From the IMG/VR virus record IMGVR_UViG_3300029305_009617: a DNA stretch of 64,000 nt; one strand, given 5' to 3'. The position numbers and the translations under genes are program-made. This DNA comes from an uncultured virus (IMG/VR IMGVR_UViG_3300029305_009617) (taxonomy: Duplodnaviria > Heunggongvirae > Uroviricota > Caudoviricetes). The notes below the pieces were generated by a model. The model was not told where the DNA came from, searched no databases, and saw only the letters and a program-made list of their open reading frames with translations. Below, in pieces: positions 1 to 62,271 of this stretch. Numbering within the stretch: the stretch's first letter is position 1; each line of letters opens with the position of its first letter.

Positions 1-56
1 GAGCAACATAACTTATTTTATACTCTGTTATTTACATCAGTTTTCCAAAATGAATA

Positions 57-356
57 TTATTTGTCTATTATTCCATCAAGACCGAATCCAATCTTTGAGT
101 TATCAATTTCATATTCTATCGTTGGAAGTGGCGGTAATTCTACTTCGATATCCGGTATTTCTACTGTTGGAATTTCTATATGGGAAGGAGCTTCATACCC
201 TAGAGCTAACCATATAACACCTGTCCTTATGCTAATAAATAAGAATGCTATTATTGATATAATTATCAGCCATTTAATTTTTTTTATAATGGACACAATT
301 ATAATTAGTGTAATAACTATAGCAATGATGATACCTGTGTATACTTCTTGTTTCAT
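57..356 (-). CDS. Small membrane protein with two N-terminal hydrophobic segments
   Basis: 99-aa ORF, same strand as the cas operon, Ile-rich TM stretches. Confidence 0.55.
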   Translation of the reverse strand: MKQEVYTGIIIAIVITLIIIVSIIKKIKWLIIISIIAFLFISIRTGVIWLALGYEAPSHIEIPTVEIPDIEVELPPLPTIEYEIDNSKIGFGLDGIIDK

Positions 357-503
357 AAAATTAAAGCAGAATTTTTATTATTTGGATGCAAAAACATATA
401 ATATATTATTCTGCTATTCTCCTTTCGTTAAATTTCCATTTATTTTTTTCATGTTGCTCGTAAGTACAACGACCTTAATGGGTTTAGGACCAGCCTAAAT
501 ACT

Positions 504-1181
504 ATCTCAATCCACGCTGCCCTTACGGACAGCGACCAGCAGGAGATAGATTTTTCCAAATACATAGTAATTTCAATTCACACTGCCCTTGCGGACAGTG
601 ATGCAACATCTTTATTATCCGGATTGTACATACGAATTTCAATCCACACCGCCCTTGCGGGCAGTGACATTTCTGCATATACTACCATCTACCCCAAATG
701 ATGATTTCAATCCACACTGCCCTTGCGGGCAGTGACTTTAGAGTTCAAACTACGCCCTACATAGTAATTATTTCAATCCACACCGCCCTTGCGGGCAGTG
801 ACCAAGGCAATAGAAAATGAAAACAAAAGAATTATTATTTCAATCCACACTGTCTTTGCGGACAGTGACTGTACAATTCAGATGATATAAATTAAGGGAG
901 CCATTTCAATCCACACCGCCCCTGTGGGCAGTGACACGCGTGTTCATAGCATTAAGTGTTGTGAAATAATTTCAATCCACACTGCCCTTGCGGGCAGTGA
1001 CTAATAGGTTCCGGACCTGGACCAACCCAGATGCGATTTCAATCCACACTGCCCTTGCGGGCAGTGACGCAATACCGCATTTTATATTACGCTCCAAATT
1101 AATTATTTCAATCCACACCGCCCTTGCGGGCAATGACGCAGCTGAGTGAATTATTTAAAACTGACGAGGATATTTCAATCC
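504..1181 (-). CRISPR. Type I-C CRISPR array: 10 full 33-bp repeats, 1 partial repeat, 10 spacers of 33-36 bp
   Basis: Repeat consensus on the minus strand is GTCACTGCCCGCAAGGGCAGTGTGGATTGAAAT (hairpin plus GATTGAAAT end typical of I-C). Copies start at 504, 570, 636, 704, 770, 837, 903, 969, 1036, 1105; partial copy 1172-1181. Confidence 0.97.
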
Positions 1182-1188
1182 TTCTTCC

Positions 1189-2034
1189 CTATAATCCATT
1201 GCATTCTGTCACCTTAAGTCCATCCAGAGTGCTTAATTCAATGTTGTAGTCCTCTACATACTTTGGTTCATCGCAGTTCGGAGTAATGCGTAATGAACGA
1301 TGTACTTCCGCTGTTGAATACTGGCCAGTTTTATTGTTATGCTCCCACCATATTACATCTACCACTTCCATACTTCCTTCCGGACGAGCAGAGCTTGAAT
1401 CTCCAACGAATAAGGTTCTTAATGCTTCCCTTATCTTTTCTGCATCTTCTTCCATAAATCCGGTTTTTTCAGCCAGCTGTGGGCTGATGCTTCCTTTTAC
1501 CACATACATGGCAGTACTTACACGATGCTTCATACCCATGGTATCTGATGCCCTGCCTGCTTTATCCTCGCCATTTACGGATTTTGTAATCTGGATACTT
1601 TCTACATCTACCGGAAGAACACTGAAAGCCGGATGAATAGACACCGGACCTCTTACTCCGATAGAAACTTCATTTCCCTTAAATGCAAATACCTGTCCAA
1701 ATGCACGGACATCCATCCATTCCCTGCAAGCCGCTTCTGAAAAAGCTTTTTCATTTTTGTTTTTCTGAGCTGCTTCTAATTCCTTATTGTTCTTAGCACG
1801 TTCTGCAAGGCTTCTGTATCCATCGTCGCAAAACTCATTGCTCTGAACGAAGATTTTTTCACCCATAGCCTGCAATCGGTTTCTGATTTTTCTCTTAATA
1901 CATACATCTGAAATTTCACCATATCCGTCGTAGGTGGTTCTTGGGCGGTTTTCATTTAACGGATCACCGTTAGGGTTTGCATTGTTTACCATAATTACTG
2001 TTGCGAAATCAATTTTGTTCTGTAAAATACTCAT
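1189..2034 (-). CDS. cas7: Type I-C Cas7 (Csd2)
   Basis: NPNGDP..NRPR, SDVCIKRKIRN, DVRAFGQVFAF and RGPVSI motifs. ATG at 2034 follows AGGAG. Confidence 0.95.
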   Translation of the reverse strand: MSILQNKIDFATVIMVNNANPNGDPLNENRPRTTYDGYGEISDVCIKRKIRNRLQAMGEKIFVQSNEFCDDGYRSLAERAKNNKELEAAQKNKNEKAFSEAACREWMDVRAFGQVFAFKGNEVSIGVRGPVSIHPAFSVLPVDVESIQITKSVNGEDKAGRASDTMGMKHRVSTAMYVVKGSISPQLAEKTGFMEEDAEKIREALRTLFVGDSSSARPEGSMEVVDVIWWEHNNKTGQYSTAEVHRSLRITPNCDEPKYVEDYNIELSTLDGLKVTECNGL

Positions 2035-2087
2035 ATTTTTATCTCCTGTTCGTTTTTTATTATTTTTATAAGAAAACATCATCCAAA

Positions 2088-2498
2088 TTATTCATCTAGC
2101 CAGTCTTTATTCTGATATACGTTCCCTATTACTTTTGCATACTCTTCTAAAGGCCCTACCGGCATTTGAGGATGCCCTTTTGCCTCTACATAAAATCCCA
2201 CACTATTCATGTAATCACCATCATTTGGACAATATGCTTCGTATGTACCATATTTCACAAGCATTAAAATATCTAAGATTTGCGTTCCCTGGTGACTTTC
2301 GATGAAATCACCTTCGTACACATATTGTCCACTAATATCCGTCTTGCCGGTATTCTTCATAAGGATAATATCTTCAAAAGGCACATTATAATAGTCCACC
2401 TTTCTATCCGTTAATATGACGGTTTTGGGCGTTCGGTAATCTATCTGCATTACCTCCCACATTTTATTTTTCCAAAATGCCCTATATTCACCATTCAT
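2088..2498 (-). CDS. YopX-family protein inserted between cas8c and cas7
   Basis: YRAFW start, MKNTGKTDISGQYVYEGD and KVIGNVYQN, the typical YopX pattern. Confidence 0.8.
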   Translation of the reverse strand: MNGEYRAFWKNKMWEVMQIDYRTPKTVILTDRKVDYYNVPFEDIILMKNTGKTDISGQYVYEGDFIESHQGTQILDILMLVKYGTYEAYCPNDGDYMNSVGFYVEAKGHPQMPVGPLEEYAKVIGNVYQNKDWLDE

Positions 2499-2513
2499 AG
2501 TATTTCCCCTCGT

Positions 2514-2900
2514 TTATGCGGTTTCTTCTGTTTCTTTTCTCTTGCCATTCTTCATCAGAAGTTTCTGTTCCTGATAGCCTACCAAGTATTCCGGTTTTAA
2601 CGGTTCGTTATTGAATCCTTCCAGTTCCTGCAGCCGGATGATGTTTTTATTCAGTTCATACTCCAGATATTCTCTAGTTTCCCGTGGCAGACGCTTCATG
2701 TATGCCTGCAGCACAATACGGTATATCTGTTCATATGCTGTCATTGGCCTCCGTACAAATTTGTTCCACGCTTTCTTAGCATTTGTAAGTCGGTCATCCG
2801 TAATGTTTTTTCCTGTAAAATACATTGCACGGCTCTCTGCTTCATCCAAAACAGCTAATAATCTGCCCCATATCATGGAGCGTTCCTTTACTGCATCCAT
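2514..2900 (-). CDS. cas11: Cas11c small subunit from an internal in-frame start in cas8c
   Basis: AAAGGAGAGG precedes the in-frame ATG at 2900 ([15 protein letters not shown]...). Internal Cas11 translation is established for type I-C. Confidence 0.75.
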   Translation of the reverse strand: MDAVKERSMIWGRLLAVLDEAESRAMYFTGKNITDDRLTNAKKAWNKFVRRPMTAYEQIYRIVLQAYMKRLPRETREYLEYELNKNIIRLQELEGFNNEPLKPEYLVGYQEQKLLMKNGKRKETEETA

Positions 2901-4412
2901 ATTTTCCTCTCCTTTGTAAAAATACCCTTCAAATTTAAGTAATGAGCATGCCACGGGATAGACGTGATTTTTCCAAACATATGTACTATATGCCTGTGGC
3001 CGCTCCAGCTTTTGCAAAACTGCTCTTGTAATATCTTTTGGTATGCATTTACTTAATCCCGTGATACACGGCAGAATCCGTTTTACCGTATTTTTAATAA
3101 CATCATCATCTGCTCCCAGGTAGCCGCCTCTGTCGGTACCGTATGCTGCAAGTGCAATTTCCCGGGCTGATGGGGCTGCTAAAGTATAAATATGTTCTTT
3201 TGTCTCATAATCTTTTATTAGACGCATAACAGCTGCTTTTTCATGCCATTTTCTTAAATTATTAAGAAAATCATTACCACCAAATTCATGGTAATATTCA
3301 ATCGACATTCGCCCTTGCGTTGCCGCATCCACGGACATCATGATAATACGTGAATCTTCTGTAATCGATGGATTATATCCATAAATAGCCCGGCAGATAT
3401 CTATCGCTGTTTCCTTTCCCGTATCAGGCATTTCAATTTCTGTATTATTAAACGCGTAATAACTGTTCGAATAGACATCAGGCACTCCAAAATCTTCGTA
3501 GGATATATCCCCTACATTAGATGGTATATTCCATATGATTATTGCTGAACCATCCTTTTGATATCCCTGCCTCTGAATCAGCCAGCGTAGTGCATTGTGT
3601 GCCTTCTGTGAGGCAACATACCCAACAGAAGCAGCCTGTTCTTTTGTCGCAAAGCGTCCTCGGAACGTAAATCCGGCCAAATCATTACCTGAAATAATCT
3701 TTGCCTTATCACCGGAGTTGCGGATTTTATTCGGATGCTTGATAGTGCATTTTTCTCTCAGTCCGGAAGCAAAACAGATATCATCATATCCTACCTGTGG
3801 AATGTAATATTTCTGATAGAGTTCGTACAATTCTTTATCCAGCCAGCCTTTTACAACTTCACCGCTGCTGTCAACAATTCCAAACCGGACAAAAGCAGAA
3901 CTCTGTGGCAGGTTATGTATCTTAATTTCCTCTGATAAAGACAGAAAATCATCGAAAGCCAGCACTCCATGCTTTTCAAGGTCCTCTATCAGACAGCCTT
4001 TCTCAAGATATTTATAGATTCCTATAATGTAGCTACAGCTGTATTCAGATTCCGCCCATTTTTTCAAAGATTCCATATAAGCTTTATAATACTGCGTACG
4101 CTTATCATCTCCGGTGTAGTGCACATAATCCCCCGCGACATAACATAATTTATCATGGAGCGGATGTGGTGAATTACCTGCTGTCCTTGTTGCCGAATCC
4201 TCTGTAACCGGAATAATGGTTACTTCATTATGACCGTCTTTTCCCACAACGGATGCATCAATAAATTCTCCGTTTTCACTTATATACACCTCAATCTGCG
4301 CATTGGCAGTTGAATGCGCTACTGGAACCAATACGGGTTCTCCTTCCACTCTTTCTCCTGCAACACACATACATGCATCATACGTTTCACATAATCTCTC
4401 AATCCAGCCCAT
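2514..4412 (-). CDS. cas8c: Type I-C Cas8c (Csd1)
   Basis: [37 protein letters not shown] and GRLLA motifs; lies between cas5 and cas7. Confidence 0.93.
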
Positions 4413-5136
4413 ACTCGCTCGCCTCCGCTTCTAATGTCTTGATATCACTTAATGCAAACTGCTTCTGCTTAAAAATTGGCCCTTGCTTAATGATGGAACA
4501 TTCTTCCGGTCTTGGAAAATTTAGAATCCCTTTATCCATATACGCATTCCACAATCTGGTTTCCATATGTTTATTTTCGCCTGTGTAAGTAATCCCATGA
4601 TACATAATGCCAAGTGACATACTAGTATCGTCATAATATCCTTTACCGCTTCCAAAAGCACATGGTTCCACATATCCCTGACACTCTCTAGTTCCAAGAA
4701 ATATGTCTCTTCTTCCTCCGGCTTTTAAGGCTTTTTTTACAATTCCATAATGTTTTCCCTCAATTCTGTCTTTTTCTAAATCCGGCCGGCTCATATCCCA
4801 CTCAAAATGCGCTCTGATTTGATACTGCACATCGCTTAAATAAGTGTAATTTGCTAAATCATTTCCACCGGTATAGTTAATTGGACGAATTCCTTTCGGT
4901 TCTGTCAGTATCTGGTTTATAATTCTGCATTCATCAATTACCCACACAATAGTAGGTTTCCAGTAGATACTCTCCATGATACCTTTTAAGGCTTCATACG
5001 TAGGTACCGGATAGGTAAATTTTTCTCCACCTATTTTTGTTAAGGGGTCGGTAAATAAAGCATATTTTCCGTATAATTTCAACTCTACTGTATTTTTCAA
5101 ACCTGTATTCCTTTCTGTTATTTTATTTTTTTTCAT
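4399..5136 (-). CDS. cas5: Type I-C Cas5 (Cas5d, crRNA-processing)
   Basis: [29 protein letters not shown] and IFLGTREC motifs; overlaps the cas8c start. Confidence 0.95.
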
Positions 5137-5179
5137 CTTCTGGCAGCAGTTATTTTATGTTGAGCATATAAAATTAGCT

Positions 5180-5815
5180 TTAAATAGAATTTTTAATAAA
5201 ATAATATCCATCTTTATACATGGCCAAGTGTGGAGAATATAGGGATTTAAACTGTCTGATAAGTTCCTTTCGATCCCATAATTCAATATTATTGTACTTT
5301 GCTAAATCTTTTGCCGATTCTGTGAAAAAAGAATTGGTTATCACGAGTCCTTTTTTGCATTGATATAACGCTTTGCCTGCTGCCACTTCTTGTACGGCTT
5401 TATAATTTACTTTATACCCTGCCTCATGATTATATCTTTTTGCCTGTACAGCAATTCGTTCTCCGTGCTTTTCTATAACCAAATCAACACCATAATCACC
5501 TTGTGGAGGAGTTAAATATACTTTATAGCCTTTTCTTGTGAAGTGGGCTTTTAAATAACGCTCAAATTCTATACCGTTTAATGTATCAACATGTTTTATG
5601 TCACTGTTAATATAATCCAAATACTCTTTTCGGCCCAGACGCTTAAATTTTTCTTTTCTATGATGTTTTACAATTTGATTTAAAAATATTAATATGATAA
5701 AATACTGCATTAGTATACGTTTATCTGCTATAAAACTATGAACAACAAATATTACTAATATCAGGTTGGCATAGGTATGAAATTTTAAATTTCTATTTCT
5801 TTTAATCATATCCAT
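5180..5815 (-). CDS. Mrr-like restriction endonuclease domain with an N-terminal membrane anchor
   Basis: FERYL..GY..DYGVDL..AVQAKRY..VQEV..ITNSFFT motif; hydrophobic N-terminus. Confidence 0.8.
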   Translation of the reverse strand: MDMIKRNRNLKFHTYANLILVIFVVHSFIADKRILMQYFIILIFLNQIVKHHRKEKFKRLGRKEYLDYINSDIKHVDTLNGIEFERYLKAHFTRKGYKVYLTPPQGDYGVDLVIEKHGERIAVQAKRYNHEAGYKVNYKAVQEVAAGKALYQCKKGLVITNSFFTESAKDLAKYNNIELWDRKELIRQFKSLYSPHLAMYKDGYYFIKNSI

Positions 5816-5879
5816 AAAAGCCTCCTATAAAATCTGCAATAATACTTTATCTCTGTTTTTTTCTATAAATTTTAGTTTT

Positions 5880-6098
5880 CTATATTTGTCTAAAAATAAT
5901 CAGTAAGCTCCAGATGGAAATGAACATCCAAAAATAAATCCATCCTGCCATTAGCCTTGCTTTTTGTTTAACAGACATAGGGAATATAACTAATAATCCA
6001 CCTACAGCGAATAGTAAAAATATCCACACTAACGGAAACCACTTATATTTATTCAATTTGCATAGTTGTATATCTAAAAATTTTAATAATTTTTTCAT
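5880..6098 (-). CDS. Small membrane protein
   Basis: 72 aa, two hydrophobic segments, GAGG RBS. Confidence 0.55.
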   Translation of the reverse strand: MKKLLKFLDIQLCKLNKYKWFPLVWIFLLFAVGGLLVIFPMSVKQKARLMAGWIYFWMFISIWSLLIIFRQI

Positions 6099-10504: not shown

Positions 10505-13345
10505 CTAACCATCTAAATCATCCTCTAATACATCAATATCTTCCCTTATGACATCATCTTCAAACATACCCTTAATTAAATTATCCAGCGTATATTTTTC
10601 TTTTGCGTTTGCAATATCTTCTTCAGCTAAAACAAGTTCTTCTTTGATTTGTTCAAGAATTTCTTTATCATCCGCAGGCATATTGCTTTTAGCCTTTTCC
10701 TTTGGCTGATTCTTTGCTGCTGCCTGCGATTTATCTTTTCTTGAGCGTAATTCTGCTTCTGCCTTTTCACTTAAAAGAAGCATTTTCACTTCCTCATCCG
10801 TTAATGTTAAATCTTCCATTGCGGCTGCATCAGTAACTGTATAGTTTTTTATTCTATCTCTTACTAAGATTGTTGTATTGCCAGTGCCTTCTTTTGCAAC
10901 CTTCTTGGTTTCCTGTACTAATTTTCTAGCTTGCTTAGTAAGTACTTTCTTGCTTTGAGAAAGTTTGTCGAAATCATAGCAAATAACTTTTCGCTTCTTT
11001 AATTCCGCTTTATCTAAGAAATTGCATTTGCCTATAAATCCTGGCTCTACTGCCCCATCTTTAATTTTAAAAACAGTTACTTCTTGAAATTCTCGATTTC
11101 GTACATCGCTGCTTTCTACCCGGTTTTTTCTTTGGCTGGTTGTTCTTTCGGAATACGATTGGTTTGCATTCGCTTCAAGAATACTTGTGGAAGACTCTGT
11201 TTTCTGCACAGTGTCTTCCGTTACTGTTCCGGCAAGTTCACTATATATTTTCATTTCTTCAGCGGATACTCGGCCGAAAACTATCTGGGTTCCAGCTCCC
11301 ATAATTACATTTTTTAAATATGCGGTTGCTTTTGATTTTTCCATCTGTGAAATAGACTGCATCGCAATTGTGATTGCAACATTATACTGTCTGAATAGTG
11401 CATACATATCTTCATATACGGCATGCATATACTGGCTTGCTTCATCTACATATACGAAGTGATATGGCCTTTTATCCTTTGGGCGCCTTTTAACTGCTAG
11501 GGAAAGGTTTAACAGGATAGTCAGACCAAGCATCGTTGATTGCTGACTGCCGCGTTCAATTGCTGTATTAATCACAGTCACTTCACATTTTCTTAATGCC
11601 TCATCAAAATTAATGGAATTTTCCTGTGTCGCATTAAATATATTGGCATATTTTTGGTCCATCATAACTTTATTAATTAAGTTTCGAAGACCTCTGGACT
11701 GATCGTCCATTTTATCGTTCTCAGGATTTAATAACTCTTTCTTTACATTCTGAATGATATTAAAGTATGGATTATTCTCCCCGCTGTTTTTCTTTGATAC
11801 ATTTCTATTTTTTTCTACTGTTTCTACGGTTGCTCCCATGGAATTGCTTTTTTTAACCGAATTACCTACTGTTACGTTAATATCGTAATAGTCTTCTATT
11901 TCCTGCACCATTGGCGCCAAACGCGAAAAATCGTTAATACAATTTTGCACTTCTTTCATACTTGATTGCTGTCCCTTTATACGGGCTGCCAGCATGCAAA
12001 TAATTGCTATATTTGTTGATACTGAGGTGTTGATATCTCTAAAGTACTGGTCTGAGGTGCCCGCTGCCTCGTTGGTTGCTACTAATACTTCTGAAAAATC
12101 CTGTGCCTGCTTAACAATTCGGTCGTTTATCTCTTCTTCACTTAATGTTTCATCGATAAGAAGTAACTTATCATCTAACAAAAAACTGTTAATTCCTTTT
12201 TTCTTGACATTCTTTTTATTTTTATAATTACATACCGGATCTATAACATTTACATTAATATTTCTTGCTGCGCATGCGTCAATAATGGTATCGTTCATAG
12301 CGTTATTAGGTGCCATTACTGTAATGCCGCAATCCGGATAGTCCCGTAATATCTTATCAAACTCTTCTTTAAATTCTTTTTTTCTAGGATATATATCGTA
12401 TTCTGTTATTTTTCCTCTGTGTGGTCTTTTTATATATGCTTTCTTTTTAACCAGCAGTTCGTATAGTAAAGGATGTCTCTTTTCCATGTTGGATATTTTA
12501 ATATTCAAATCATGTACAATTGCTGGTATCATTGTTGAGCTTGTTTTACCGGTACCAGATTGTCCATTTATGAAAGTATGTACAAACCGATCCCATTCTA
12601 AAATCATTTCTACTGCGCCAGTTTTTATATTTTTAAATATTGGTAAGTCGTACTTGGCTTTTTTATTTTCTCTTAAATCAATATATTTATTAATTTTAAA
12701 TCTCTCAATACTTTCTACCATGTATTCTTTTTCATAAAACACCATTACAGCTCCGGAAATAATAACTGTTGCAATAATCATTGGTATTATCATTGCCATT
12801 CTTGCAAGGTTTACTACCATGGCAGCAGTCATATTTTCAGTGACTTCTATTTCTAAAATTTTTGACACAAAAACTTTTCTTGAAAATAGTATAATAGGCT
12901 GCTCTAATGTTAATATTGCGCTGATGCTGACTAACTTTAGTCTAAATTTTTTCATATTATAAAAATGATATTTATCTGTGATGGTGGAAAAAGCCCACAC
13001 TGCAAATGGCAGTCCTGCAAAAATCACATTCACTATTACATTATTTGTAATTACAGTATTCTGCAGTGCATATATGGAATAAAAATATCTGAAACATAAA
13101 CCAGTAAAATACAGGTAAAATACTAGATAGCATACGTCATAGAATTTAACATTTTTCAACAAACTAATATTAAACGTCTTTGTAACAAAAATTTTTATTT
13201 CCTCTGAAAGAGCGTTCAAATCTATCTCTTTTTTCTGTATATATTTTTTTGATTTACTTTTTTTATTTGTTCCCTTGCTTGATAATTTTTTACTTGTATT
13301 TATTCCATTTTGCCCGTTATTTAGCTTTTTACTTCTTTCTTGCAT
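10505..13345 (-). CDS. virD4: Type IV coupling protein (VirD4/TraG-like)
   Basis: N-terminal TM helices, Walker A GQSGTGKT, Walker B VYVDEA, RQY..TIAMQSISQ. Confidence 0.85.
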   Translation of the reverse strand: MQERSKKLNNGQNGINTSKKLSSKGTNKKSKSKKYIQKKEIDLNALSEEIKIFVTKTFNISLLKNVKFYDVCYLVFYLYFTGLCFRYFYSIYALQNTVITNNVIVNVIFAGLPFAVWAFSTITDKYHFYNMKKFRLKLVSISAILTLEQPIILFSRKVFVSKILEIEVTENMTAAMVVNLARMAMIIPMIIATVIISGAVMVFYEKEYMVESIERFKINKYIDLRENKKAKYDLPIFKNIKTGAVEMILEWDRFVHTFINGQSGTGKTSSTMIPAIVHDLNIKISNMEKRHPLLYELLVKKKAYIKRPHRGKITEYDIYPRKKEFKEEFDKILRDYPDCGITVMAPNNAMNDTIIDACAARNINVNVIDPVCNYKNKKNVKKKGINSFLLDDKLLLIDETLSEEEINDRIVKQAQDFSEVLVATNEAAGTSDQYFRDINTSVSTNIAIICMLAARIKGQQSSMKEVQNCINDFSRLAPMVQEIEDYYDINVTVGNSVKKSNSMGATVETVEKNRNVSKKNSGENNPYFNIIQNVKKELLNPENDKMDDQSRGLRNLINKVMMDQKYANIFNATQENSINFDEALRKCEVTVINTAIERGSQQSTMLGLTILLNLSLAVKRRPKDKRPYHFVYVDEASQYMHAVYEDMYALFRQYNVAITIAMQSISQMEKSKATAYLKNVIMGAGTQIVFGRVSAEEMKIYSELAGTVTEDTVQKTESSTSILEANANQSYSERTTSQRKNRVESSDVRNREFQEVTVFKIKDGAVEPGFIGKCNFLDKAELKKRKVICYDFDKLSQSKKVLTKQARKLVQETKKVAKEGTGNTTILVRDRIKNYTVTDAAAMEDLTLTDEEVKMLLLSEKAEAELRSRKDKSQAAAKNQPKEKAKSNMPADDKEILEQIKEELVLAEEDIANAKEKYTLDNLIKGMFEDDVIREDIDVLEDDLDG

Positions 13346-13898: not shown

Positions 13899-13929
13899 TA
13901 ATTATTCGAATTGTACATATGAAAGGCAA
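13899..13929 (-). promoter_or_regulatory. Conserved tra-type promoter, copy 1
   Basis: TTGCCT-ttcatatgtacaattcg-AATAAT (17-bp spacer); 32 bp identical to the copy at 24692. Confidence 0.8.
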
Positions 13930-17217: not shown

Positions 17218-17840
17218 ACAATGCATCGACGTATTAACCTTATTTTTGTCTTGCGAAAACATAATTTATTACAGTGCATATTTACAATATTTTAAACCAA
17301 TACACTGTATATTATTTTTCTGAACGCTTTTGATAAAATTTCTTTTTTAAATCCGCCAATATTACAATGTATATTTTATATACTTTCTAATTTAATTTTC
17401 TATTGCCACCTATATTCAACAATATACACATTGTATTCATGTCGTATAATAGCACACTAGTATCTTTTTTCAGTTAATATTACATTGCGTACTCAAGAAC
17501 TTTATCTAATAACAAAATTCATGCATATAATCATTTTATCTTATACATTGCATACCACACACATTTTATTTACATCACTTATAAAATAATGTCTGCATAA
17601 TTATAATAAACAATGTAAGCTTTTAAAATTATCATCATTACGTTGCATACCTGCTCATTTATATCATATCTATAACCCAAAAAATACACTTATTCTATAG
17701 ATACACTGTATATAATTATCTTCATAAAACAAACCCCATTCTCCCTATATAATTAAATTATTATCACAATGCGTACTCATATTACGAACTAACAGATATA
17801 AATTATCACTACATTTGAGCAAAAATATGTACAAAGTATA
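17218..17840 (+). repeat. Twelve phased copies of ACANTGYRTA (centromere-like array)
   Basis: Starts at 17218, 17271, 17302, 17364, 17428, 17482, 17545, 17610, 17640, 17703, 17766, 17831. Confidence 0.75.
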
Positions 17841-23222: not shown

Positions 23223-24644
23223 ATGGGCTGTATAAAAGAAACAATAAGTTCTGCAGAACCCTGTTTAATCTGCGGAAAACCAGATTATTGTTACAGGCTC
23301 ATATTTGAGGACGGCTCAACATTGCATTGCTGTGCACGTACAGAGTCGTCTTCGGTTATTTCTAATGGTATGGAATTTGTATTTATCAAGGAGAAAGATA
23401 CACCAATTGGCAAGTACTTCTATTATCAGGAAAAAACCGAGCAGGAGAAACATAGAGCGGCTTATTTGGAAAGGTTGATAGCATCCGGCCAGTATAATGC
23501 GGGATATAAAACAAACAGACCTAAAATGAGCACAAGTGTAACAACTATTGTTTCTTCCCAAAAGGACACTTATATTCCCGGAGAGTGTCCGGTTGCATCG
23601 ATTGATAGGCTTGATAAAGTTTATACTCGGTTGATGCAGCTTTTAGTTCTAGAACCATCAGATTTATTAAAGCTGAAAAGGGACTGGAATAGTGATATTA
23701 CAGGTGATAAGTTTACAGATTTAATTCTTAAGACGTATCCTATAAAATCTTTACCGCCGGGAGATAATAAAAGATCTGTTTTAAAACGAAAAGTTTCAAG
23801 CAGATTAAGAAGGGACATAGCTTGCCAAATTTTTAAAGAGTTTGGTAGTTTGGCAGGTATTCCAGGTTTTTATCAGGAGAATGATGGGGCGTGGAGTATT
23901 GCAGGTTCCGAAGGGATTCTTTTCCCATGCTATAATGCAGAAGGAAAATTAATCCGTCTTCGCATCAGAGAGAGTTATCCTATTATAGGGACAACTTTTA
24001 ATGGTGTGGAAGGGAGTATGAAACATACTATTTCCAAATATGGAGATGATTTATGGTTCTTTTATCCCAAAGGCAGTAATGAGTCTGAACTTGTGTGGGG
24101 TAATCGAGTTCAGAAAATTACACTAGGAAAGGATGGGTGTCCTAAAGGTAAGGCTAGCGGTAAATACAAAAATCTTGCGTCTATATATGAAAAGAAAGAT
24201 GAAGAAGGAATTTCGTATAACGCTTACCGAAATGGAACCAGATCCGGCAGTTCACTCTCTGTATACGATAAATATGCAACGAATTATTCTGTAGTGTATA
24301 TAACAGAGGGAGAGAAGAAAGCAATTGTTGCTAATATGCTCTTAAAGGCTCCGGTTATAAGTTTACCTGGAACAGGTACCTTTATGAAGTTATTTGAACC
24401 GGATGAAAACGGTTTGTCTGTTATAGATAAACTGATAGCCAAGGGGTTAAAATTAGCAGTAATCGCCTATGATGCAGATAAAGGAGAGAATATTCGAGTA
24501 TTATCTGCAGAGCAAGGAGCAATTGCTGAATTTAAAAAAAGACAGATATCCATTGCTATTGGAGAATGGAATGCAAATTTTGGCAAGGGGTTAGATGATA
24601 TCCTGGTAGCGGGTATTATGCCATCTGTCTATATGTGTGATTAG
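23223..24644 (+). CDS. Zn-finger plus TOPRIM primase-like protein (DUF3854-like)
   Basis: PCLICGKPDYC, YITEGEKKA, IAYDAD and KGLDD motifs; AGGAGGG RBS. Confidence 0.75.
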   Translation: MGCIKETISSAEPCLICGKPDYCYRLIFEDGSTLHCCARTESSSVISNGMEFVFIKEKDTPIGKYFYYQEKTEQEKHRAAYLERLIASGQYNAGYKTNRPKMSTSVTTIVSSQKDTYIPGECPVASIDRLDKVYTRLMQLLVLEPSDLLKLKRDWNSDITGDKFTDLILKTYPIKSLPPGDNKRSVLKRKVSSRLRRDIACQIFKEFGSLAGIPGFYQENDGAWSIAGSEGILFPCYNAEGKLIRLRIRESYPIIGTTFNGVEGSMKHTISKYGDDLWFFYPKGSNESELVWGNRVQKITLGKDGCPKGKASGKYKNLASIYEKKDEEGISYNAYRNGTRSGSSLSVYDKYATNYSVVYITEGEKKAIVANMLLKAPVISLPGTGTFMKLFEPDENGLSVIDKLIAKGLKLAVIAYDADKGENIRVLSAEQGAIAEFKKRQISIAIGEWNANFGKGLDDILVAGIMPSVYMCD

Positions 24645-24692
24645 AAAGGTGCTATATAGCACCTTTCTTTTTTATAGATTTTCTAGAAATGG

Positions 24693-24723
24693 TTGCCTTT
24701 CATATGTACAATTCGAATAATTA
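24693..24723 (+). promoter_or_regulatory. Conserved tra-type promoter, copy 2
   Basis: TTGCCT-N17-AATAAT with central TGTACA. Confidence 0.8.
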
Positions 24724-25027
24724 TAAGTGTAGGTTTTTGCTATTCGTTTATTTTTCGTAAAAAGAATGATTTTCATTCTATGTAAAAGATTTGTTGAGAT
24801 ACTTAGCTTAAGATGATGCAGGTTAGGTAGAAAGAATTGGAAGGGCAATTTTTTATTTTTAGGCGTATTAATTTTTATTTTCTCTTACGGAGAACTGAGA
24901 ATAGTATGTTTTAGGTAAGCAGGGTATCGCCCCTCTCTTGCCTTGCTTAAAGGGATATTCAGTTCCTCAAGGCATGGAACGGCAGCTGTGAAGTGCCTTT
25001 TAATAAAATTACAAGGAATCGAAAATT

Positions 25028-25540
25028 ATGACAGGACAAGCACATTTATTAGGAGGAGCATTAATGGGTGCTTCTTATATGGTTAATACAAATTTGACAG
25101 TTGGTGTACCTTTTTTTATCGGGTCTTTAGTTGGTTCGGTTTTTCCGGATATAGATAGCGGACAGTCTACGATTAGTAATAAAGTTCCTTTATTATCATT
25201 TATAACAAGATTATTTGTAGGGCATAGGGGAATAATTCACACGCCGTTATTTCTGATTATTATAAGTATTATAATTCAGTGTATGCAAACTGTGTTACAA
25301 TTTTCAGAACACATTTTATATGGTTTCATTTGCGGTTATTTATGTCATCTATTGCAAGATGCAATGACGAGACAAGGAATTAAATGGTTATATCCACTTA
25401 CAAATAAGAATTATCGTATTTTAACTTTACGGAGCGGGAAAGGCTTTTTCTCAGGCTTTATTGAAACAGCTCTAACGATTTTGATTGTTAGTATAATACT
25501 GTTTTTTATTATTTTATTAGGAGGATTTTTATATGAGTAA
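25028..25540 (+). CDS. Metal-dependent membrane hydrolase (YdjM-like)
   Basis: AHLLGG, FPDID, GHRGIIHT and HLLQD motifs. Confidence 0.8.
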   Translation: MTGQAHLLGGALMGASYMVNTNLTVGVPFFIGSLVGSVFPDIDSGQSTISNKVPLLSFITRLFVGHRGIIHTPLFLIIISIIIQCMQTVLQFSEHILYGFICGYLCHLLQDAMTRQGIKWLYPLTNKNYRILTLRSGKGFFSGFIETALTILIVSIILFFIILLGGFLYE

Positions 25541-27821
25541 AAAGTTAAACATAGTAGTTGGACTAAAAGACAATAAGCAGTGTAGAAAATTAGAAAGCAG
25601 TATTCGGCCTATTATGGAAAATATGTTAACCGAAGATTGTGAGTTAGAAAATTTAGAGATTACCTATGAAAAATCTTTCTTTGACGATTGCGTTGCTGCC
25701 GGTTTTGTAAATGTTGGGATTATGCTTGAAAAATTTGACAATATTGCAATCGGCCAAGGAACTATTAAGGTGTGGAGTAATTTAAATCCGGATATTCACC
25801 TGATACTCGTTATGGATGACTTAAAAAAATCATCGGCAAAGGCGCATGGATTGTATAAAAGAGAATATTATAACGGACTTTTTTTAAGTGATTTTTTAAG
25901 TAGTGAAATGATGCGTGTTATTTTACATGGAAGAACAAAAGAAGAAGCTTATGAGTATTATGGCATGGATGAATACTATAAAAATCGTGAGTTAGAAGAA
26001 AAGGGAAAACTAATATCTGATATTGAAGTGGTTTCAACGGATATAGAAAAGGATGTGTCCGGGAAAAGTGATGATACTAAGATATCTTCTTCATATGTAT
26101 CTCTTAATTCAGATAAAGTAACCACTACAAGCGAGAATATGATAGCTGTATCCGAATCATTAAACATACAGTCGATGAAAAAATTACCAGAGATAGATAG
26201 CCAAAGTGATTTGCCGAGAACATCATCTATAGCAGAAGAAAAAGATTTTGAACAGAAACCAATTGTTTTAGGAGAAATAAGTAATAATAGCAGAGAGGAT
26301 ACCCCAAGTAATAATAATACTGCAATAGAGCAGATAGATATTATGACTTTGCAAGATGAAGAAGAACTTTCTGAGTCCAAAAATGTATCTATTATAAATG
26401 ATAATGATTGGACTAAATTTTCTACTACGGTTAAAAAAAGTGTGGTAACAAAAGATATTATAAAAACAAAGAATAAAAAAGGTATTTCAGTTAAGCAAGT
26501 TATAGAGGCTATAAATTCATATGCTACAGACGATGTTTTTTTTCAGAATATTGTAGATGAAGCAGAATTAATTATTCATGATAACGAACAGGAACTGACA
26601 CAGCAAATGAGTAGCAATGAAGATGTGTCAAAAATGTTTAATGACGTTATCGATTATTACTCATATAAAAATGAAGTTGAACTGAATAAAGCATTATCAC
26701 TTATCGATAATCAGCAGTCAATGGATTATTTTTTAGCAACTGTTCAGGACTATATAGATATGATAAATGAACAAACATATCATGTAGAAAAGGGAGATGT
26801 ATTAGGGGAAGTATTTTATTTATTTTTAAGATTTATTTTGGAATATGATATTTTGACAGATTTTATAGAGGATGACTCTGTTACATCTATACATGTTGTT
26901 GATTGGAATAAAATTCGTATAAAAAAAGGTACAAGGCGGTATTCTGTTAAAAATACATTTATAAGTGAGTCATATTATATGCGGTTTGTGGCTAATTTAA
27001 AAATCAGAAATATGAAAAGTATGATGTCTGACCACTTATCAACTTATTTTACAGATAAAAAGGTATCGGATAAATTTATATGTAATGTCTTTATTACTAA
27101 TGAATTTGTGTCGAATACTGGCAGACCGGAAATCCTTATTAAAAAAAATCGTAAAGAACGGTTTACAATTAAGGAATTGCTTGGAAATAAATTGACGTTA
27201 GCAGCAGCAGCACTTTTGATTACTGCTATTAAAAATGGAGAAAGTATTTTATTTGTAGGTCCTGCTTCTTGTGGCGCAACATCTTTGATGAACACATTAT
27301 TAGAATATATTCCAAGGGAAAAAAGTGGTGTTGTTTTGCAACATAAAGACGAAATCGCAGCTGTTGAACATCCGGAACTTATCATTCAGCATCCAGCAAC
27401 TGTTCGAATAAAATCTGAAAACGTTAATAATACAGAAGTTAGTGCGGTTACATCTTATTCAATTTTAGATATTGCGGCATCTGCTTTAAATCTGGATGTA
27501 GATTATTATGTGATGGTTGATGTGGTAGGAAGTGAAGCTGCCTCATTTTATAAAGCTTTTGATAAAGGATTTGTAACATGGGGAAATATTCAAGCAAAAA
27601 GTGTTACAGGTGGCTTGCAACGTCTTGCAGATATTATTCTTGCAAGCGAACCGGATTTATCCAGAGATTCCGTATGTAATGTAATTGCTAATAAATTCAG
27701 TATCGTTGTATATATGGAAAAACTTAGGGTTGTTAGTATCAGTAAAGTTTCTTCAGATGGTTATGATTCTGAAAAACATGAATTTCACGTGGAAGAAGTT
27801 ATAAATAATAAAAGAAAATAA
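25533..27821 (+). CDS. CpaF/VirB11-like secretion ATPase with degenerate Walker motifs
   Basis: C-terminal half fits the T2SS-E/CpaF layout (DDSVTSIHV, SILFVGPASCGATSLMNTL); Walker A Lys absent. Confidence 0.65.
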   Translation: MSKKLNIVVGLKDNKQCRKLESSIRPIMENMLTEDCELENLEITYEKSFFDDCVAAGFVNVGIMLEKFDNIAIGQGTIKVWSNLNPDIHLILVMDDLKKSSAKAHGLYKREYYNGLFLSDFLSSEMMRVILHGRTKEEAYEYYGMDEYYKNRELEEKGKLISDIEVVSTDIEKDVSGKSDDTKISSSYVSLNSDKVTTTSENMIAVSESLNIQSMKKLPEIDSQSDLPRTSSIAEEKDFEQKPIVLGEISNNSREDTPSNNNTAIEQIDIMTLQDEEELSESKNVSIINDNDWTKFSTTVKKSVVTKDIIKTKNKKGISVKQVIEAINSYATDDVFFQNIVDEAELIIHDNEQELTQQMSSNEDVSKMFNDVIDYYSYKNEVELNKALSLIDNQQSMDYFLATVQDYIDMINEQTYHVEKGDVLGEVFYLFLRFILEYDILTDFIEDDSVTSIHVVDWNKIRIKKGTRRYSVKNTFISESYYMRFVANLKIRNMKSMMSDHLSTYFTDKKVSDKFICNVFITNEFVSNTGRPEILIKKNRKERFTIKELLGNKLTLAAAALLITAIKNGESILFVGPASCGATSLMNTLLEYIPREKSGVVLQHKDEIAAVEHPELIIQHPATVRIKSENVNNTEVSAVTSYSILDIAASALNLDVDYYVMVDVVGSEAASFYKAFDKGFVTWGNIQAKSVTGGLQRLADIILASEPDLSRDSVCNVIANKFSIVVYMEKLRVVSISKVSSDGYDSEKHEFHVEEVINNKRK

Positions 27822-28543: not shown

Positions 28544-31237
28544 ATGGAAACCCGAATAGAAGCGTATGATTTTTCAAAACGAGCATTAACTGTAATTACG
28601 CAAAGTGAAGAACTTGCTAAGAGTTACAGCGCTATTGAAGTTGCAGAACTGCATCTTTTGTATTGCATGATTACGATAGAGTCTGGTGCGAGAACTACTT
28701 TAATAAATATGGGAATTAACCAGCGGCATTTATTGGATAAAACCAAAGGACTTCTTTCACAAGTGAAAAAGAAAAAGATTTCTTATAGCAAAAATGAACG
28801 ATTAAGAGCCAGTGATGAATTGTCTGAGGTTATTACAAGTTCTTTAGCGGAGCGTGCGTCAACGAATTCAAAAGTTGTTGATACGAGGCATCTTTTAATC
28901 TGCATGATTCGAATTCCGGATAAGGGAATGAGGGAGATTATAAGAGAATATGGAATTACTTTGGAACGTGTTTATAATGCAATTAATTTAGAAGAGGAAA
29001 AAAACAGGAAGAGTTCGCAAAGAGCTATCGCAGTACAAAAAAAATTAGAAGGACAGATAACTGATTGTAAAAATGATAGTGATTTGGAAAGTGATTTGGA
29101 AAGTGATGGTGTAAAGAGTGATGCATTATCTTTTTGCATTAATATGGTAGAAGAAGCGAAAAAACCAGGTAAAGAGCCTGTTATTGGACGAGATGCAGAA
29201 GTTAGGAACCTGATGTTAATTCTTTCAAGAAAAACAAAAAATAATCCTTGTTTAATAGGAGAACCAGGTGTTGGAAAAACGGCAGTGGTAGAAGGATTGG
29301 CACAAAGAATTGCCAAAGGAGATGTTCCGGATTCTCTGAAAAATAAGAAATTGCTATCCGTAGATTTAGGAGCAATGGTAGCAGGAGCTAAATATCGTGG
29401 TGAGTTTGAAGAACGTTTGCAGAAGCTGCTAAACAGTGTTAAAGAGGATAATGGTAATACATTATTATTTATTGATGAATTGCATAATATTGTTGGTGCC
29501 GGGGCGAGTGACGCAGGTACAATGGATGCTAGCAATATGTTAAAACCCATGCTCGCTAGAGGAGAACTCCATTGCATTGGGGCTACGACACTTGATGAGT
29601 ATAGAAAGTATATTGAAAAAGACCCAGCTTTAGAACGAAGATTTCAAACAATTCTGGTAAAGGAGCCTTCACAAGAAGATACAATATCTATATTGCGCGG
29701 GTTGAAAGAAAAATTTGAAATATTTCATGGTGTTAGAATCATGGATAGTGCCCTTGTAAGCGCAGTAAGGTTATCTTCCAGATATATTAATGATAGATAT
29801 CTTCCAGATAAGGCAATTGATTTGATTGATGAATCATGTGCATTAATCAAAAATGAAATAGACACTATGCCTGTAGAATTAGATGAACTGAATAGAAAAA
29901 TATTGCAGCTGGAAATGGAAGAGACGGTGTTAAAAAATGAGAATGACAAGACTAGCAGTGAAAGGTTAACTTCTTTGCAATCTGAATTGCAAAAAACAAG
30001 AGAACGCTATTATTCACGAAAGGCGCAGTGGGAATCAGAAAAAAATAATATTGAAGCAGTTTCAAAAACTCGTGCGGAGCTTGAAATCTTAAACGCAGCT
30101 ATTGAACAAGCGAAAGAAGAAAATGATATTGAAAAAATGGCGAATTTAACATATGTTGAATTGCCAAAACTGCAAAAACAGTTAGAAATAGAAGAAGAGA
30201 GTTTGGCTAATTCGGAAATTATGATTCACGAGAAAGTGACGGATGATGAGATTGCCCAAACTATTTCCAGATGGACAGGAATACCTCTTTCTAAACTGAA
30301 TGAAAGTGAAAGGGCAAAAACGTTGGGATTGTCCGAACACTTGCATAAACGTGTTATTGGTCAGGAGGAAGCGGTAACTAAAATTGCACAATCAATTATT
30401 CGTTCAAGAGCGGGAATTAAAGACCCTAACAGGCCAATAGGTTCTTTTCTATTATTGGGGCCTAGTGGTGTTGGAAAAACAGAGCTTGCAAAAGCACTTG
30501 CTGAAAATTTATTTGATTCTGAAAAAAACCTGATTCGTATTGATATGACTGAATATATGGAGAAACATTCTGTTTCTAGATTGATTGGCGCACCTCCAGG
30601 ATATGTTGGTTTTGATGAAGGTGGACAATTAACAGAAGCAGTTAGAAGGAATCCATATAGTGTGGTTCTTTTTGATGAAATAGAAAAAGCACATGCGGAT
30701 GTTACTAATATTCTCCTTCAAATTTTTGATGATGGGCACGTGACTGATTCTAAGGGAAAAAAAGTTGATTTTAAGAATACCGTATTAATTATGACATCAA
30801 ATTTAGGAGCTGAACACTTGTTAAATGGAATTGATGAAAATGGTGTTATATCTGAAGAAGCAGTTAATAAAGTTATGATGAAATTAAAAAAGTTTTTCCG
30901 GCCGGAATTGCTTAATCGCATTGATGAAACTCTGCTGTTTAAACCGCTTACGAAAGAAGATATGTCATCTATTGTTTACCTTATTATTGCTAATCTAAAT
31001 AAGCGATTAGAACAACAAAGGGTATCATTAGAATTTACACCAGCTGCTATAGAGGATGCTATTGAAAAAGGATATGACCCTATTTATGGGGCAAGACCAA
31101 TGAAGCGGTATATTCAGGACAAAGCAGAAACAGCTGTCGCAATCCTTTTATTGGAAAAGAAAATCACTTCAGGAAAAGTAATCATTGATATTGTTGAAGG
31201 CGATGTTGTTGCGTTTGAAAAAGACGAAAGTAAATAA
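28544..31237 (+). CDS. clpB: ClpB-like AAA+ chaperone
   Basis: Two AAA modules ([16 protein letters not shown]), M-domain coiled coil, [16 protein letters not shown]. Confidence 0.93.
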
Positions 31238-40297: not shown

Positions 40298-41410
40298 ATG
40301 TATAATCGAATACATACACAAAACACGTTTTCCCGGACAATGGATAATGCGCAAAAGATGGGTGCTTACTACACTGATTTAGCACATTGTAAATCCATAG
40401 GGGAAATGTTTCTGTTTCCGGAGGATAAGGAAGTAAGTGTGCTGGAACCATCTATTGGTGATGGAAAAGCGGTACTTACAGTCACCGGCGCAGAAGAAAA
40501 CCCCAATGTAAAGATATTTGGGGTGGAAGTCAATGACAAGGTTGCTTTAGAAGATATGGAAAATCCACTCTTTGAAGAAATCTTAGAAGCTGACTTTTTG
40601 GAGGGCGTGCGCATTAGAAATAATGCGTTTTCTTTTTGCTTTGGGAATCCGCCATACATTACGGATGACTTAGCAGAAGATGGCCCGGAACGCATGGAGA
40701 GGCAGTTTTTAGAGAAAGTGACAAACTATCTTACAAAGACTGGTTTAATTGCCTGGGTAATCCCTTACGGGATATTTGCTGATAACGGACACATGCGATT
40801 TTTATTAAACCACTATGAAATTTTAACTGTGTATAAATTCCGTGCGGAAGAATATGCAAAATTTCATCAAGTGGTTATTATTGCAAGAAAGAAGGATTCT
40901 ACTTTTGTATTAAAAGATGAAGTGGATGCAGCTTTAGTTAAGTATCAGTTTGAAAATCTTGAGGAGTTACCGGAACATCCGGTAGAGCGGTATGAGGTTG
41001 GAGAGTCTGATAGTAAGAAGATAACTCTTTTTTGCAAAAAAGAGTTCGATGTAAATGGTGCTTATGAAACACTGATGAACATCGAAGAGAATGATTCCCT
41101 TAGTGACCTGTATTCTTTTATGGATAAGGCACTGACAACGGATAAATATGTTGTAGGGGACATTGGAAATCCTCCAATTCCTTTAAAGAAGGATTCTTTG
41201 TACTTAATGGCAACAAGCGGTGCAGGAAGCGGACTTACGGGTGATGAAATAACACGTGATTTGCATTTGCAAAGAGGTGTGGCGGAAGTCATTGAAGAGT
41301 CTGATTTAAGAGAGGATGAAAAGGGTAATCCGGTAGAAGTTGTTACCAGCCGGACTAAAATTAGTATGACCGTAGTTCAGAATAATGGTCGAATTGATGT
41401 CTTAGAATAA
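40298..41410 (+). CDS. SAM-dependent amino (N6A/N4C) DNA methyltransferase
   Basis: YYTD, VLEPSIGDG and GNPPY motifs. Confidence 0.85.
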   Translation: MYNRIHTQNTFSRTMDNAQKMGAYYTDLAHCKSIGEMFLFPEDKEVSVLEPSIGDGKAVLTVTGAEENPNVKIFGVEVNDKVALEDMENPLFEEILEADFLEGVRIRNNAFSFCFGNPPYITDDLAEDGPERMERQFLEKVTNYLTKTGLIAWVIPYGIFADNGHMRFLLNHYEILTVYKFRAEEYAKFHQVVIIARKKDSTFVLKDEVDAALVKYQFENLEELPEHPVERYEVGESDSKKITLFCKKEFDVNGAYETLMNIEENDSLSDLYSFMDKALTTDKYVVGDIGNPPIPLKKDSLYLMATSGAGSGLTGDEITRDLHLQRGVAEVIEESDLREDEKGNPVEVVTSRTKISMTVVQNNGRIDVLE

Positions 41411-41430
41411 GACAAGAAAGGAGGTATCTG

Positions 41431-44862: not shown

Positions 44863-44960
44863 TGAGAGCACTCGGCTCTTACAATTTCATATTGAAAAGG
44901 GACTCTTCGGAGTCCTTAGAAACTATAAAAACTGTAAAAAATAAAAAGGAGGTTCTTATT

Positions 44961-60570: not shown

Positions 60571-60581
60571 AAATAGCATTA

Positions 60582-60628
60582 AGGAACCCTGTTGCTTGGC
60601 ATTTGCCGGGCAGCAGGGTTCTTTTTTT
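60582..60628 (+). terminator. Intrinsic terminator
   Basis: GAACCCTGTTGCTTGGC...GCCGGGCAGCAGGGTTC followed by T7. Confidence 0.8.
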
Positions 60629-60669: not shown

Positions 60670-60700
60670 TTGCGTTTCGTATGTACAACTCGAATAATTA
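60670..60700 (+). promoter_or_regulatory. Conserved tra-type promoter, copy 3
   Basis: TTGCGT-ttcgtatgtacaactcg-AATAAT; 28/31 identical to copies 1 and 2. Confidence 0.8.
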
Positions 60701-61923: not shown

Positions 61924-62271
61924 ATGGCAAGACTAGGAAGATATAAAATTCCGCGGCCATTTAAAGATGAGGATATATGGTTTCGTTTTTTTACAAAAAA
62001 ACAATTAATGTATTTACTGGTTTTTGGCGGAATCGGATTATTGTTACTTATGTTGTCAGCCGTTGCCAAAATGGTTGTTATCGGAGGCATCTTATTTGTT
62101 GTTTTTTTGGTATTGGGGATTGTTATTCCAAGATTTAATATGCCGGATGATAAATACCTTTGGGGTGGTGGAATGCCTTTGGAAACAATCTTTATACGAT
62201 GGATTTTTAAAAAAATATCCAAAAAGTCATTATATATTAAATGTCATACAAAAGGAGGAGAGTTTAAGTGA
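61924..62271 (+). CDS. PrgI/VirB3-like conjugation membrane protein
   Basis: YKIPRPFKDEDIWFRFFTKKQL plus two TM helices. Confidence 0.65.
   Translation: MARLGRYKIPRPFKDEDIWFRFFTKKQLMYLLVFGGIGLLLLMLSAVAKMVVIGGILFVVFLVLGIVIPRFNMPDDKYLWGGGMPLETIFIRWIFKKISKKSLYIKCHTKGGEFK

Follow-up and report, generated by a model that had tools for sequence, protein, structure and literature searches.

We describe a small type I-C CRISPR-Cas (CRISPR: short palindromic repeats, clustered and regularly interspaced; Cas: CRISPR-associated) module in which two spacers resemble a 31-nt motif found before transfer-related operons of the same DNA. The DNA is a 64,000-nt stretch, here called the window, of the IMG/VR record IMGVR_UViG_3300029305_009617, which is filed as an uncultured virus of the Caudoviricetes. 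The full contig is at least 158 kb long (158,094 bp), of which the 64-kb window is visible. From its gene content the carrier is taken to be a conjugative megaplasmid of an animal-gut Lachnospiraceae-like host, since the window encodes VirD4-like, DUF3854, PrgI-like and VirB11/TadA-like proteins and is syntenic with the Butyrivibrio hungatei plasmid pNP144.

The effector genes lie on the minus strand near the start of the window, in the order cas5c (4399..5136, 245 amino acids; TIGR01876, 256 bits against a cut-off of 85), cas8c or csd1 (2514..4412, 632 amino acids; TIGR01863, 251 bits, cut-off 218.65) and cas7 or csd2 (1189..2082, 297 amino acids; TIGR02589, 314.7 bits, cut-off 182). All three products thus score above the curated NCBIfam cut-offs of type I-C effector families, with Pfam in agreement, and all three frames are full length relative to the family models. 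Cas5c is the nuclease that processes the CRISPR RNA (crRNA) precursor in type I-C. An in-frame ATG at codon 505 of cas8c, placed behind the sequence AAAGGAG, opens a candidate internal cas11c frame (2514..2900, minus strand, 128 amino acids). This ATG is likely the cas11c start, because an internal Shine-Dalgarno sequence with ATG fits the Cas11c of type I-C, which is made from inside cas8c (PMC7684278).

The CRISPR array (504..1180, minus strand) comprises ten repeats of 33 nt (504-1137), a 10-nt repeat remnant (1171-1180) that sits 8 nt behind the cas7 stop codon, and ten spacers of 33-36 nt. The array and the two spacers of interest are as the initial annotation described them, including the crRNA-sense sequence that it quoted for spacer 603-635. 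In crRNA sense the repeat reads GTCACTGCCCGCAAGGGCAGTGTGGATTGAAAT; it has the length (32-33 nt), the stem-loop and the ..ATTGAAA(C/T) 3′ tail of type I-C repeats, the tail being the part that gives the 5′ handle of the crRNA. The hairpin has an 8-bp stem, in which 79 of 80 pair cells are paired over the ten copies and two pairs show double changes. The two repeats farthest from the cas genes are degenerate. For comparison, 80 type I-C loci were fetched from GTDB with a Cas8c alignment; a repeat scan picked up arrays in nine of them, and these yield 118 spacers, referred to below as foreign spacers. The 3′ tail of the window repeat, GTGGATTGAAAT, is identical to the tails of these nine Lachnospiraceae arrays, and the array orientation also matches.

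The Cas3 helicase-nuclease is the signature gene product of type I systems. Cas3, Cas4, Cas1 and Cas2 from four canonical Lachnospiraceae loci (identity confirmed for two of the loci) were used as queries and gave no tblastn match anywhere in the 64-kb window (for Cas3, at E 1e-3 or better). The Cas3 family was likewise absent from the scanned open reading frames (ORFs) of at least 80 amino acids, where the sole HD or helicase matches were an HD_5 protein and an SNF2 helicase. Nor is there an adaptation module or a leader beside the array, which starts only 8 nt after cas7; where cas7 meets the repeat remnant, cas4-cas1-cas2 and the leader look as if they had been cleanly deleted. A YopX-family gene (2088..2498, minus strand, 136 amino acids; PF09643, E 2.8e-7) stands between cas8c and cas7. 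The GTDB loci are built differently: cas3 is present in all 75 that have at least 2.6 kb upstream of cas5c, so that none is Cas3-less; cas1 is present in each of the 69 whose flank downstream of cas7 is 2.2 kb or longer; and in all 77 that hold both cas8c and cas7 the gap between them is at most 110 nt and contains neither YopX nor Mrr. The window architecture is therefore an outlier among sequenced relatives. On its gene content the locus is a minimal type I-C module that lacks cas3 both at the canonical positions and in the rest of the 64-kb window, and to that extent the initial classification is borne out.

Two other assignments were considered. No transposase or TniQ family was found in the ORFs of positions 1-16 kb, and the sole TniB match in our scans is an under-cut-off AAA match inside a ClpB-like protein (28544-31237); because no transposition genes lie beside it, the module is not a Tn7-like CRISPR-associated transposon. 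Membership in type IV-A was rejected, as all three effectors belong to type I-C families and no DinG-type helicase was found among the scanned ORFs.

The motif in question is a 31-mer, TTGCCT..AATAATTA, in full TTGCCTTTCATATGTACAATTCGAATAATTA, of which the window contains three copies at up to three mismatches where none is expected. Copy 1 (13899..13929, minus strand, no mismatch) precedes a gene for a 153-amino-acid protein and the gene for a VirD4-like coupling protein (10505-13345). Copy 2 (24693..24723, plus strand, no mismatch) lies 300 nt before a YdjM gene, which is followed by genes for a VirB11/TadA-like ATPase (25533-27821) and the ClpB-like ATPase. Copy 3 (60670..60700, plus strand, three mismatches) precedes small genes, a PrgI-like gene (61924-62271) and a weak VirB4-like gene. 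A terminator-like hairpin precedes every copy by a few tens of bases: copy 1 has a hairpin and T-run just upstream (z = -7.4), and for copies 2 and 3 the terminator-like sites are at 24643-24668 and 60581-60624. Such a placement, after a terminator-like hairpin and ahead of an operon, is in keeping with a promoter. By consensus the promoter call is weak. TTGCCT-17-AATAAT agrees with sigma-70 at 9 of 12 positions in two copies, which is no more frequent than in shuffled sequence, and the third copy, with TTGCGT, fails a sigma-70 scan (hexamers near TTGACA and TATAAT, 16-18 nt apart). Between the boxes the sequence is conserved in full, which points to an operator or to a dedicated sigma factor, and the motif can reasonably be inferred to be a promoter/operator of a transfer regulon.

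The initial annotation had called the motif three conserved copies of the promoter preceding the pilin/VirB4, VirD4 and CpaF operons. The three copies are real and stand before transfer-related operons, while the operon names hold unevenly: the VirD4-like protein is supported by Pfam TraG-D_C, the PrgI-like and VirB4-like matches are weak and under cut-off in the family scans, and the 'CpaF' gene gives a weak VirB11/TadA-type ATPase match (E 2.6e-13, under cut-off). Copies 1 and 3 lie about 30 nt from the next start codon, against about 300 nt for copy 2; the latter stretch (24724-25027, plus strand), between copy 2 and the YdjM gene, contains no ORF, has no Rfam match and could serve as a long leader or encode a small regulatory RNA.

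Spacer 603-635 (minus strand; ninth of ten from the cas-proximal end) resembles the motif over the 25 nt next to the protospacer adjacent motif (PAM). Without gaps it matches 21 of 25 nt at 60677, the first 12 perfectly, 21 of 25 at 13922 on the minus strand, and 19 of 22 (20 of 25) at 24700; with one gap it matches the copy before the VirD4 operon at 23 of 26. Spacer 870-902 (minus strand; fifth of ten) resembles the motif in the opposite orientation and through its PAM-distal part. Its plus strand matches 14 of 17 nt without a gap, the three mismatches all being A/G, and it matches the copy at 24693 at 22 of 28 with one gap. The 5′ flanks of the motif-like sites in the window are GTT and CTT, not TTC. 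All ungapped counts, orientations and flanks given in the initial annotation were reproduced. When the 18-nt core of the motif was searched in the window at up to three mismatches, four matches were found against 0.27 expected, and the only one outside the motif copies was spacer 603-635 itself. To align with the plasmid's own motif, each of the two spacers requires a 1-nt gap at the same place, whereas no gap is needed to align one with the other, and so they look like two samples, in opposite orientations, of a foreign variant of the motif. They are also the most similar pair in 90 spacer-spacer comparisons (P = 0.063).

With the motif alone as target, the score of spacer 603-635 was reached in none of 300 (ungapped) or 500 (gapped) sets of shuffled spacers. 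For the second-best spacer, 870-902, 1 of 300 and 2 of 500 sets had a second-best score as high. Taken by itself, this spacer gives the more independent test; its ungapped score of 10 was reached by any of the ten shuffled spacers in 20 of 300 sets (6.7%), and its gapped score of 14 in 8.4% of 500 sets. No foreign spacer of the 118 scored at least 9.5 ungapped or 14 gapped on the motif, so that none reached either of these values. In the window as a whole, the match of spacer 603-635 is the best of any spacer (BLAST E 0.004, or about 0.04 across ten spacers), with a family-wise p of about 0.013-0.19 depending on the statistic. The likeness of spacer to motif is thus borderline above chance, and we hold it to be real homology with a confidence of a little over one half.

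The explanation that we favour, with a probability of roughly 0.4, is that this nuclease-free Cascade is used against related plasmids. The cas5c-cas8c-cas7 complex would make crRNAs and bind matching DNA without any cutting by its own gene products, acting through occupancy of the DNA as type IV-A3 and Cas3-deleted Cascades do. New spacers would come in trans from a type I-C adaptation module of the host, whose repeats have an identical 3′ tail. The source of spacers 603-635 and 870-902 would be a foreign variant of the 31-nt promoter/operator in front of the three transfer operons of this plasmid family, an origin with moderate support. Bound at the core promoter of related competing plasmids, Cascade would block their transfer genes, and the plasmid's own motif copies would escape through mismatches, the 1-nt difference in length and the non-TTC flanks. 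A more ambitious form of the proposal makes the Cascade, lacking nuclease and helicase, a programmable repressor of the transfer promoter/operator of sibling plasmids: an RNA-guided fertility inhibition or exclusion, in which spacers are kept only if they fall on promoters and the plasmid's own promoters have diverged (1-nt length change, transitions, loss of the PAM) to escape. In that full form we consider the proposal unlikely.

Metagenome data give one sign of how such an array might change. Run X7, which contains a close relative of the window, has a repeat-flanked stretch of 31 letters that is not in the window array (a single contig, depth 2.7) and that matches nothing in the window at up to three mismatches. 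It suggests spacer turnover with no cas1 or cas2 in view, and is only a hint.

Several results count against a promoter-directed use of the module. A cas3 gene may lie elsewhere on the plasmid, as 64 kb of at least 158 kb are visible. Whole-window chance controls, which the initial annotation had proposed in the form of shuffled spacers, are not decisive: a match of 21 among the first 25 nt is reached in 2 of 150 shuffled ten-spacer sets and by 0 of 118 foreign spacers, 21 among any 25 in 3 of 150 and by 2 of 118, and an ungapped local score of 15 in 29 of 150 and by 4 of 118. For spacer 870-902 the match to the motif has p of about 0.06-0.08, and the motif was chosen after the match had been seen. 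A search with the spacers, likewise proposed there, was run against PLSDB and INPHARED with the whole array (distant mode, E up to 10) and returned no perfect or near-perfect protospacer for any spacer, in a transfer promoter or otherwise; the matches were short and weak (best E 0.2), and no spacer was well covered by any of them. A degenerate pattern for the first 22 nt of spacer 603-635, drawn so as to cover the motif as well, gave 0 matches in IMG/VR. The same pattern gave four in Joint Genome Institute (JGI) metagenome contigs, which were judged to be chance, having no TTGCC box and unrelated contexts.

The rarity of related plasmids in the collections is a further point on that side. The motif was not found in pNP144 (0 matches of a degenerate pattern at up to two mismatches). 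Relatives of VirD4, all distant, occur in 3 of 401 sampled Lachnospiraceae genomes, so that related plasmids are too few for a check of conservation; in these three genomes the pattern matched no more often than a reversed-pattern control. A 46-nt stretch of the putative promoter gave only weak matches in PLSDB. Among the metagenome pieces listed (32 of 533), no promoter variant was seen, the contigs of runs X1 and X7 that cover copy 1 (13899-13929) differing from the window by 0 and 1 letters over these pieces.

The flanks form a further difficulty. Adaptation in type I-C selects a TTC PAM. Were the -35 box of the source promoter the same, spacer 603-635 would have CTT or GTT as its PAM, not TTC, and its start would lie 2 nt ahead of the position expected from a TTC PAM. 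Flank and early start together speak against acquisition in the textbook I-C manner, or else in favour of a PAM that is slipped or different. The I-C Cascade reads TTC through Cas8c, for which the Desulfovibrio vulgaris structure gives the PAM-contact residues N72 and Q212 (bioRxiv 10.1101/2022.06.15.496202).

Among the alternatives, the one that fares best, though we still think it somewhat unlikely, has the plasmid donate Cascade and crRNAs while a chromosomal I-C Cas3 of the host is recruited in trans and the targets are degraded; the promoter likeness would then be chance, or a conserved multi-copy site would be a good target in any case. Partners would be at hand, type I-C with Cas3 being common in Lachnospiraceae (80 loci, with cas3 in all 75 that can be assessed), and the repeat tail is common to the plasmid array and the nine of 80 loci with scanned arrays. 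Cas5c and Cas7 of the plasmid are 54-69% identical to their chromosomal Lachnospiraceae counterparts (Cas7 55-69% to those of the 77 GTDB loci that contain one). Identity to the chromosomal proteins is only 35-48% for Cas8c, which is the subunit that recruits Cas3. A plasmid that moves between hosts cannot rely on a compatible Cas3. The same arrangement has been suggested for phage arrays with host-like repeats, in the account of Al-Shayeb et al. (PMC7162821). The Bacillus thuringiensis megaplasmid pCT281 has cas3 without adaptation genes, which makes the two losses separable.

Chance resemblance, in which the spacers derive from other phages or plasmids and have nothing to do with transfer promoters, is in our judgement unlikely. 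The local score of 15 reached in the controls, the p value of the second spacer and the empty protospacer searches (PLSDB, INPHARED, JGI metagenome contigs, IMG/VR) all agree with it; in addition, perfect 12-mers against the window are common among the 118 foreign spacers, and the window is AT-rich (34.9% GC). Set against this are the falling of two of ten spacers, the most similar pair in the array, on the same 31-nt element, the identical 1-nt gap that both require, and the failure of every foreign spacer to reach their scores on the motif.

That the module is a decaying remnant, left without function after the loss of cas3 and cas4-cas1-cas2, we regard as very unlikely. The cas7 junction with its 10-nt repeat remnant does resemble a deletion scar, a foreign YopX gene lies inside the operon and the two distal repeats are degenerate. 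The module is nevertheless best seen as intact, because the three cas genes are full length, the hairpin is kept in every repeat (79 of 80 pair cells) and a clade of Cas8c relatives exists at 51-90% identity, beside Lachnospiraceae Cas8c proteins at about 43%; low-depth pieces identical to the window, cas genes included, are also found in runs X1 and X6. Least probable of all is self-regulation, which the initial annotation had offered as a second possibility and in which partial pairing of Cascade with the three promoters of the plasmid itself adjusts the plasmid's transfer: spacer positions 1-12 pair perfectly at 60677 and the match spans the inter-box stretch and the second promoter box, but the flanks are GTT or CTT and not TTC, two of the three copies have a mismatch at seed position 3, four or five of the first 25 positions are mismatched, pairing is lost past position 25 (one of the last eight positions pairs at 60677), and spacer 870-902 matches only through its PAM-distal end.

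The use of a nuclease-free Cascade against related plasmids has its closest counterpart in type IV-A3 systems of conjugative Klebsiella plasmids, for which Benz et al. (bioRxiv 10.1101/2023.06.23.546257) report crRNA-guided repression of core functions of other plasmids, transfer included, with spacers acquired in trans from host type I systems. The two have in common that they are plasmid-borne, have neither adaptation genes nor a nuclease (here, within the window) and have an array of about ten spacers. They differ in their proteins (Csf proteins, Cas6 and a DinG helicase there; Cas5c, Cas8c and Cas7 and no helicase here), and the present system is known from sequence alone. We read the likeness as one of function only, not of membership. 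According to the same report (bioRxiv 10.1101/2023.06.23.546257), a type IV-A3 complex that lacks the helicase achieves repression only from promoter targets, a property that would favour promoter spacers here.

Canonical Lachnospiraceae type I-C loci (cas3-cas5c-cas8c-cas7-cas4-cas1-cas2-array) share with the window locus the effector families, repeat length, hairpin, 3′ tail and array orientation; the window locus differs in having no cas3, cas4, cas1, cas2 or leader, in the YopX gene between cas8c and cas7, and in an array 8 nt behind the cas7 stop. On pCT281 a plasmid-borne cas5c-cas8c-cas7 set also occurs without annotated cas4, cas1 or cas2 alongside, but cas3 is kept directly upstream of cas5c and the Cas8c is only 36% identical to ours. 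Two described derivatives of type I-C likewise lack Cas3, adaptation genes or both: an incomplete locus without Cas3 and with a Cas8-Cas5 fusion, proposed to be a DNA binder (Altae-Tran et al. 2023, PMC10910872), and a huge-phage variant without Cas1 and Cas2 in which another helicase replaces Cas3 (Al-Shayeb et al. 2020, PMC7162821). In the accounts of these loci, repression without cleavage is proposed. Here there is no Cas8-Cas5 fusion and no substitute helicase beside the cas genes, the carrier is a putative conjugative plasmid and two spacers point to a target class. Silencing by a Cas3-deleted Cascade that binds DNA is reported from engineered type I-E CRISPR interference (CRISPRi) in Escherichia coli (PMC4288158); the window holds a natural type I-C variant, for which we assume the same mode of silencing.

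Incomplete CRISPR-Cas loci are reported to be common on plasmids (PMC9071438), and the new part of the present case is the promoter-directed reading, for which the statistics are suggestive, not decisive. Demonstrations of natural nuclease-free CRISPR repressors come mainly from type IV-A; for a few other systems such a role has been proposed. If correct, the promoter-directed reading would provide a second, independent case of RNA-guided silencing of plasmid by plasmid, aimed at transfer promoters; a CRISPRi tool in the form of a compact three-gene Cascade, whose PAM may be unusual; and a mechanism for incompatibility or fertility inhibition among the little-studied large plasmids of Lachnospiraceae. 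If the likeness is chance, the locus is a clear but less surprising instance of incomplete plasmid CRISPR-Cas loci.

Searches with Cas8c found no relative in IMG/VR when run as an alignment, none among GTDB contigs when run with the single protein (the alignment search gave the 80 canonical loci), and no match in a PDB sequence search. The YopX gene has 108 relatives (50-86% identity), of which some lie on contigs of 150-156 kb, and in none of the 77 GTDB loci with both cas8c and cas7 does the operon contain it. As a conserved partner of the cas genes it was rejected, given this absence and the fact that its relatives share no longest contig of the same size with the listed Cas8c relatives, the window's own contig excepted. 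Upstream of cas5c, at a distance of 43 nt, lies a gene for an Mrr_cat nuclease with a hydrophobic N-terminus (5180..5815, minus strand; PF04471, E 6.7e-30). It probably belongs to the plasmid backbone and not to the cas module, because a 38%-identical homologue stands at the syntenic place in pNP144, where there are no cas genes. On the same grounds, and in view of the hydrophobic N-terminus, it was rejected as a substitute effector; by a weak further test, its relatives share no longest contig of the same size with the listed Cas8c relatives apart from the 158,094-bp contig itself.

A few observations concern other spacers of the array. Spacers 537-569 and 737-769 share the 9-mer TACTATGTA in the same orientation, a score reached by chance in 38% of shuffle sets. 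An AT-rich intergenic site at 17373-17407, between a MerR-like gene and an operon with an actin-like (MreB-like_C) protein, is the best or near-best gapped match of both spacer 803-836 (E 0.01) and spacer 1069-1104 (E 0.094), on opposite strands. As a spacer target it was treated as chance, spacer 803-836 being of low complexity and matching many places. Conversely, the 118 host spacers from the nine GTDB arrays matched the window at chance level only (12-15 perfect nt, or 19 of 21).

As to the carrier, family scans of the window proteins identified TraG-D_C, DUF3854, DUF5688 and RelB, and scans of the window with Rfam and for tRNA genes gave no matches. The nearest plasmid in PLSDB is pNP144, with a VirD4 41% identical and the same local gene order, including the Mrr_cat gene; PLSDB contains no plasmid near-identical to window positions 1-25000. 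Parts of window positions 1-6000 occur in 17 runs from 12 studies of animal feces or gut metagenomes, with a best sampled-word share of 0.47, and no RNA run is listed among them; besides the close relative in run X7, a more distant one is present in run X13. Farther along the window (40298-46250, plus strand), genes for a DUF6094 methyltransferase, an SNF2-type helicase of 1143 amino acids and a protein with a DNA polymerase III beta-like domain stand in a row, and a DUF6094 gene is also found near the I-C locus of pCT281.

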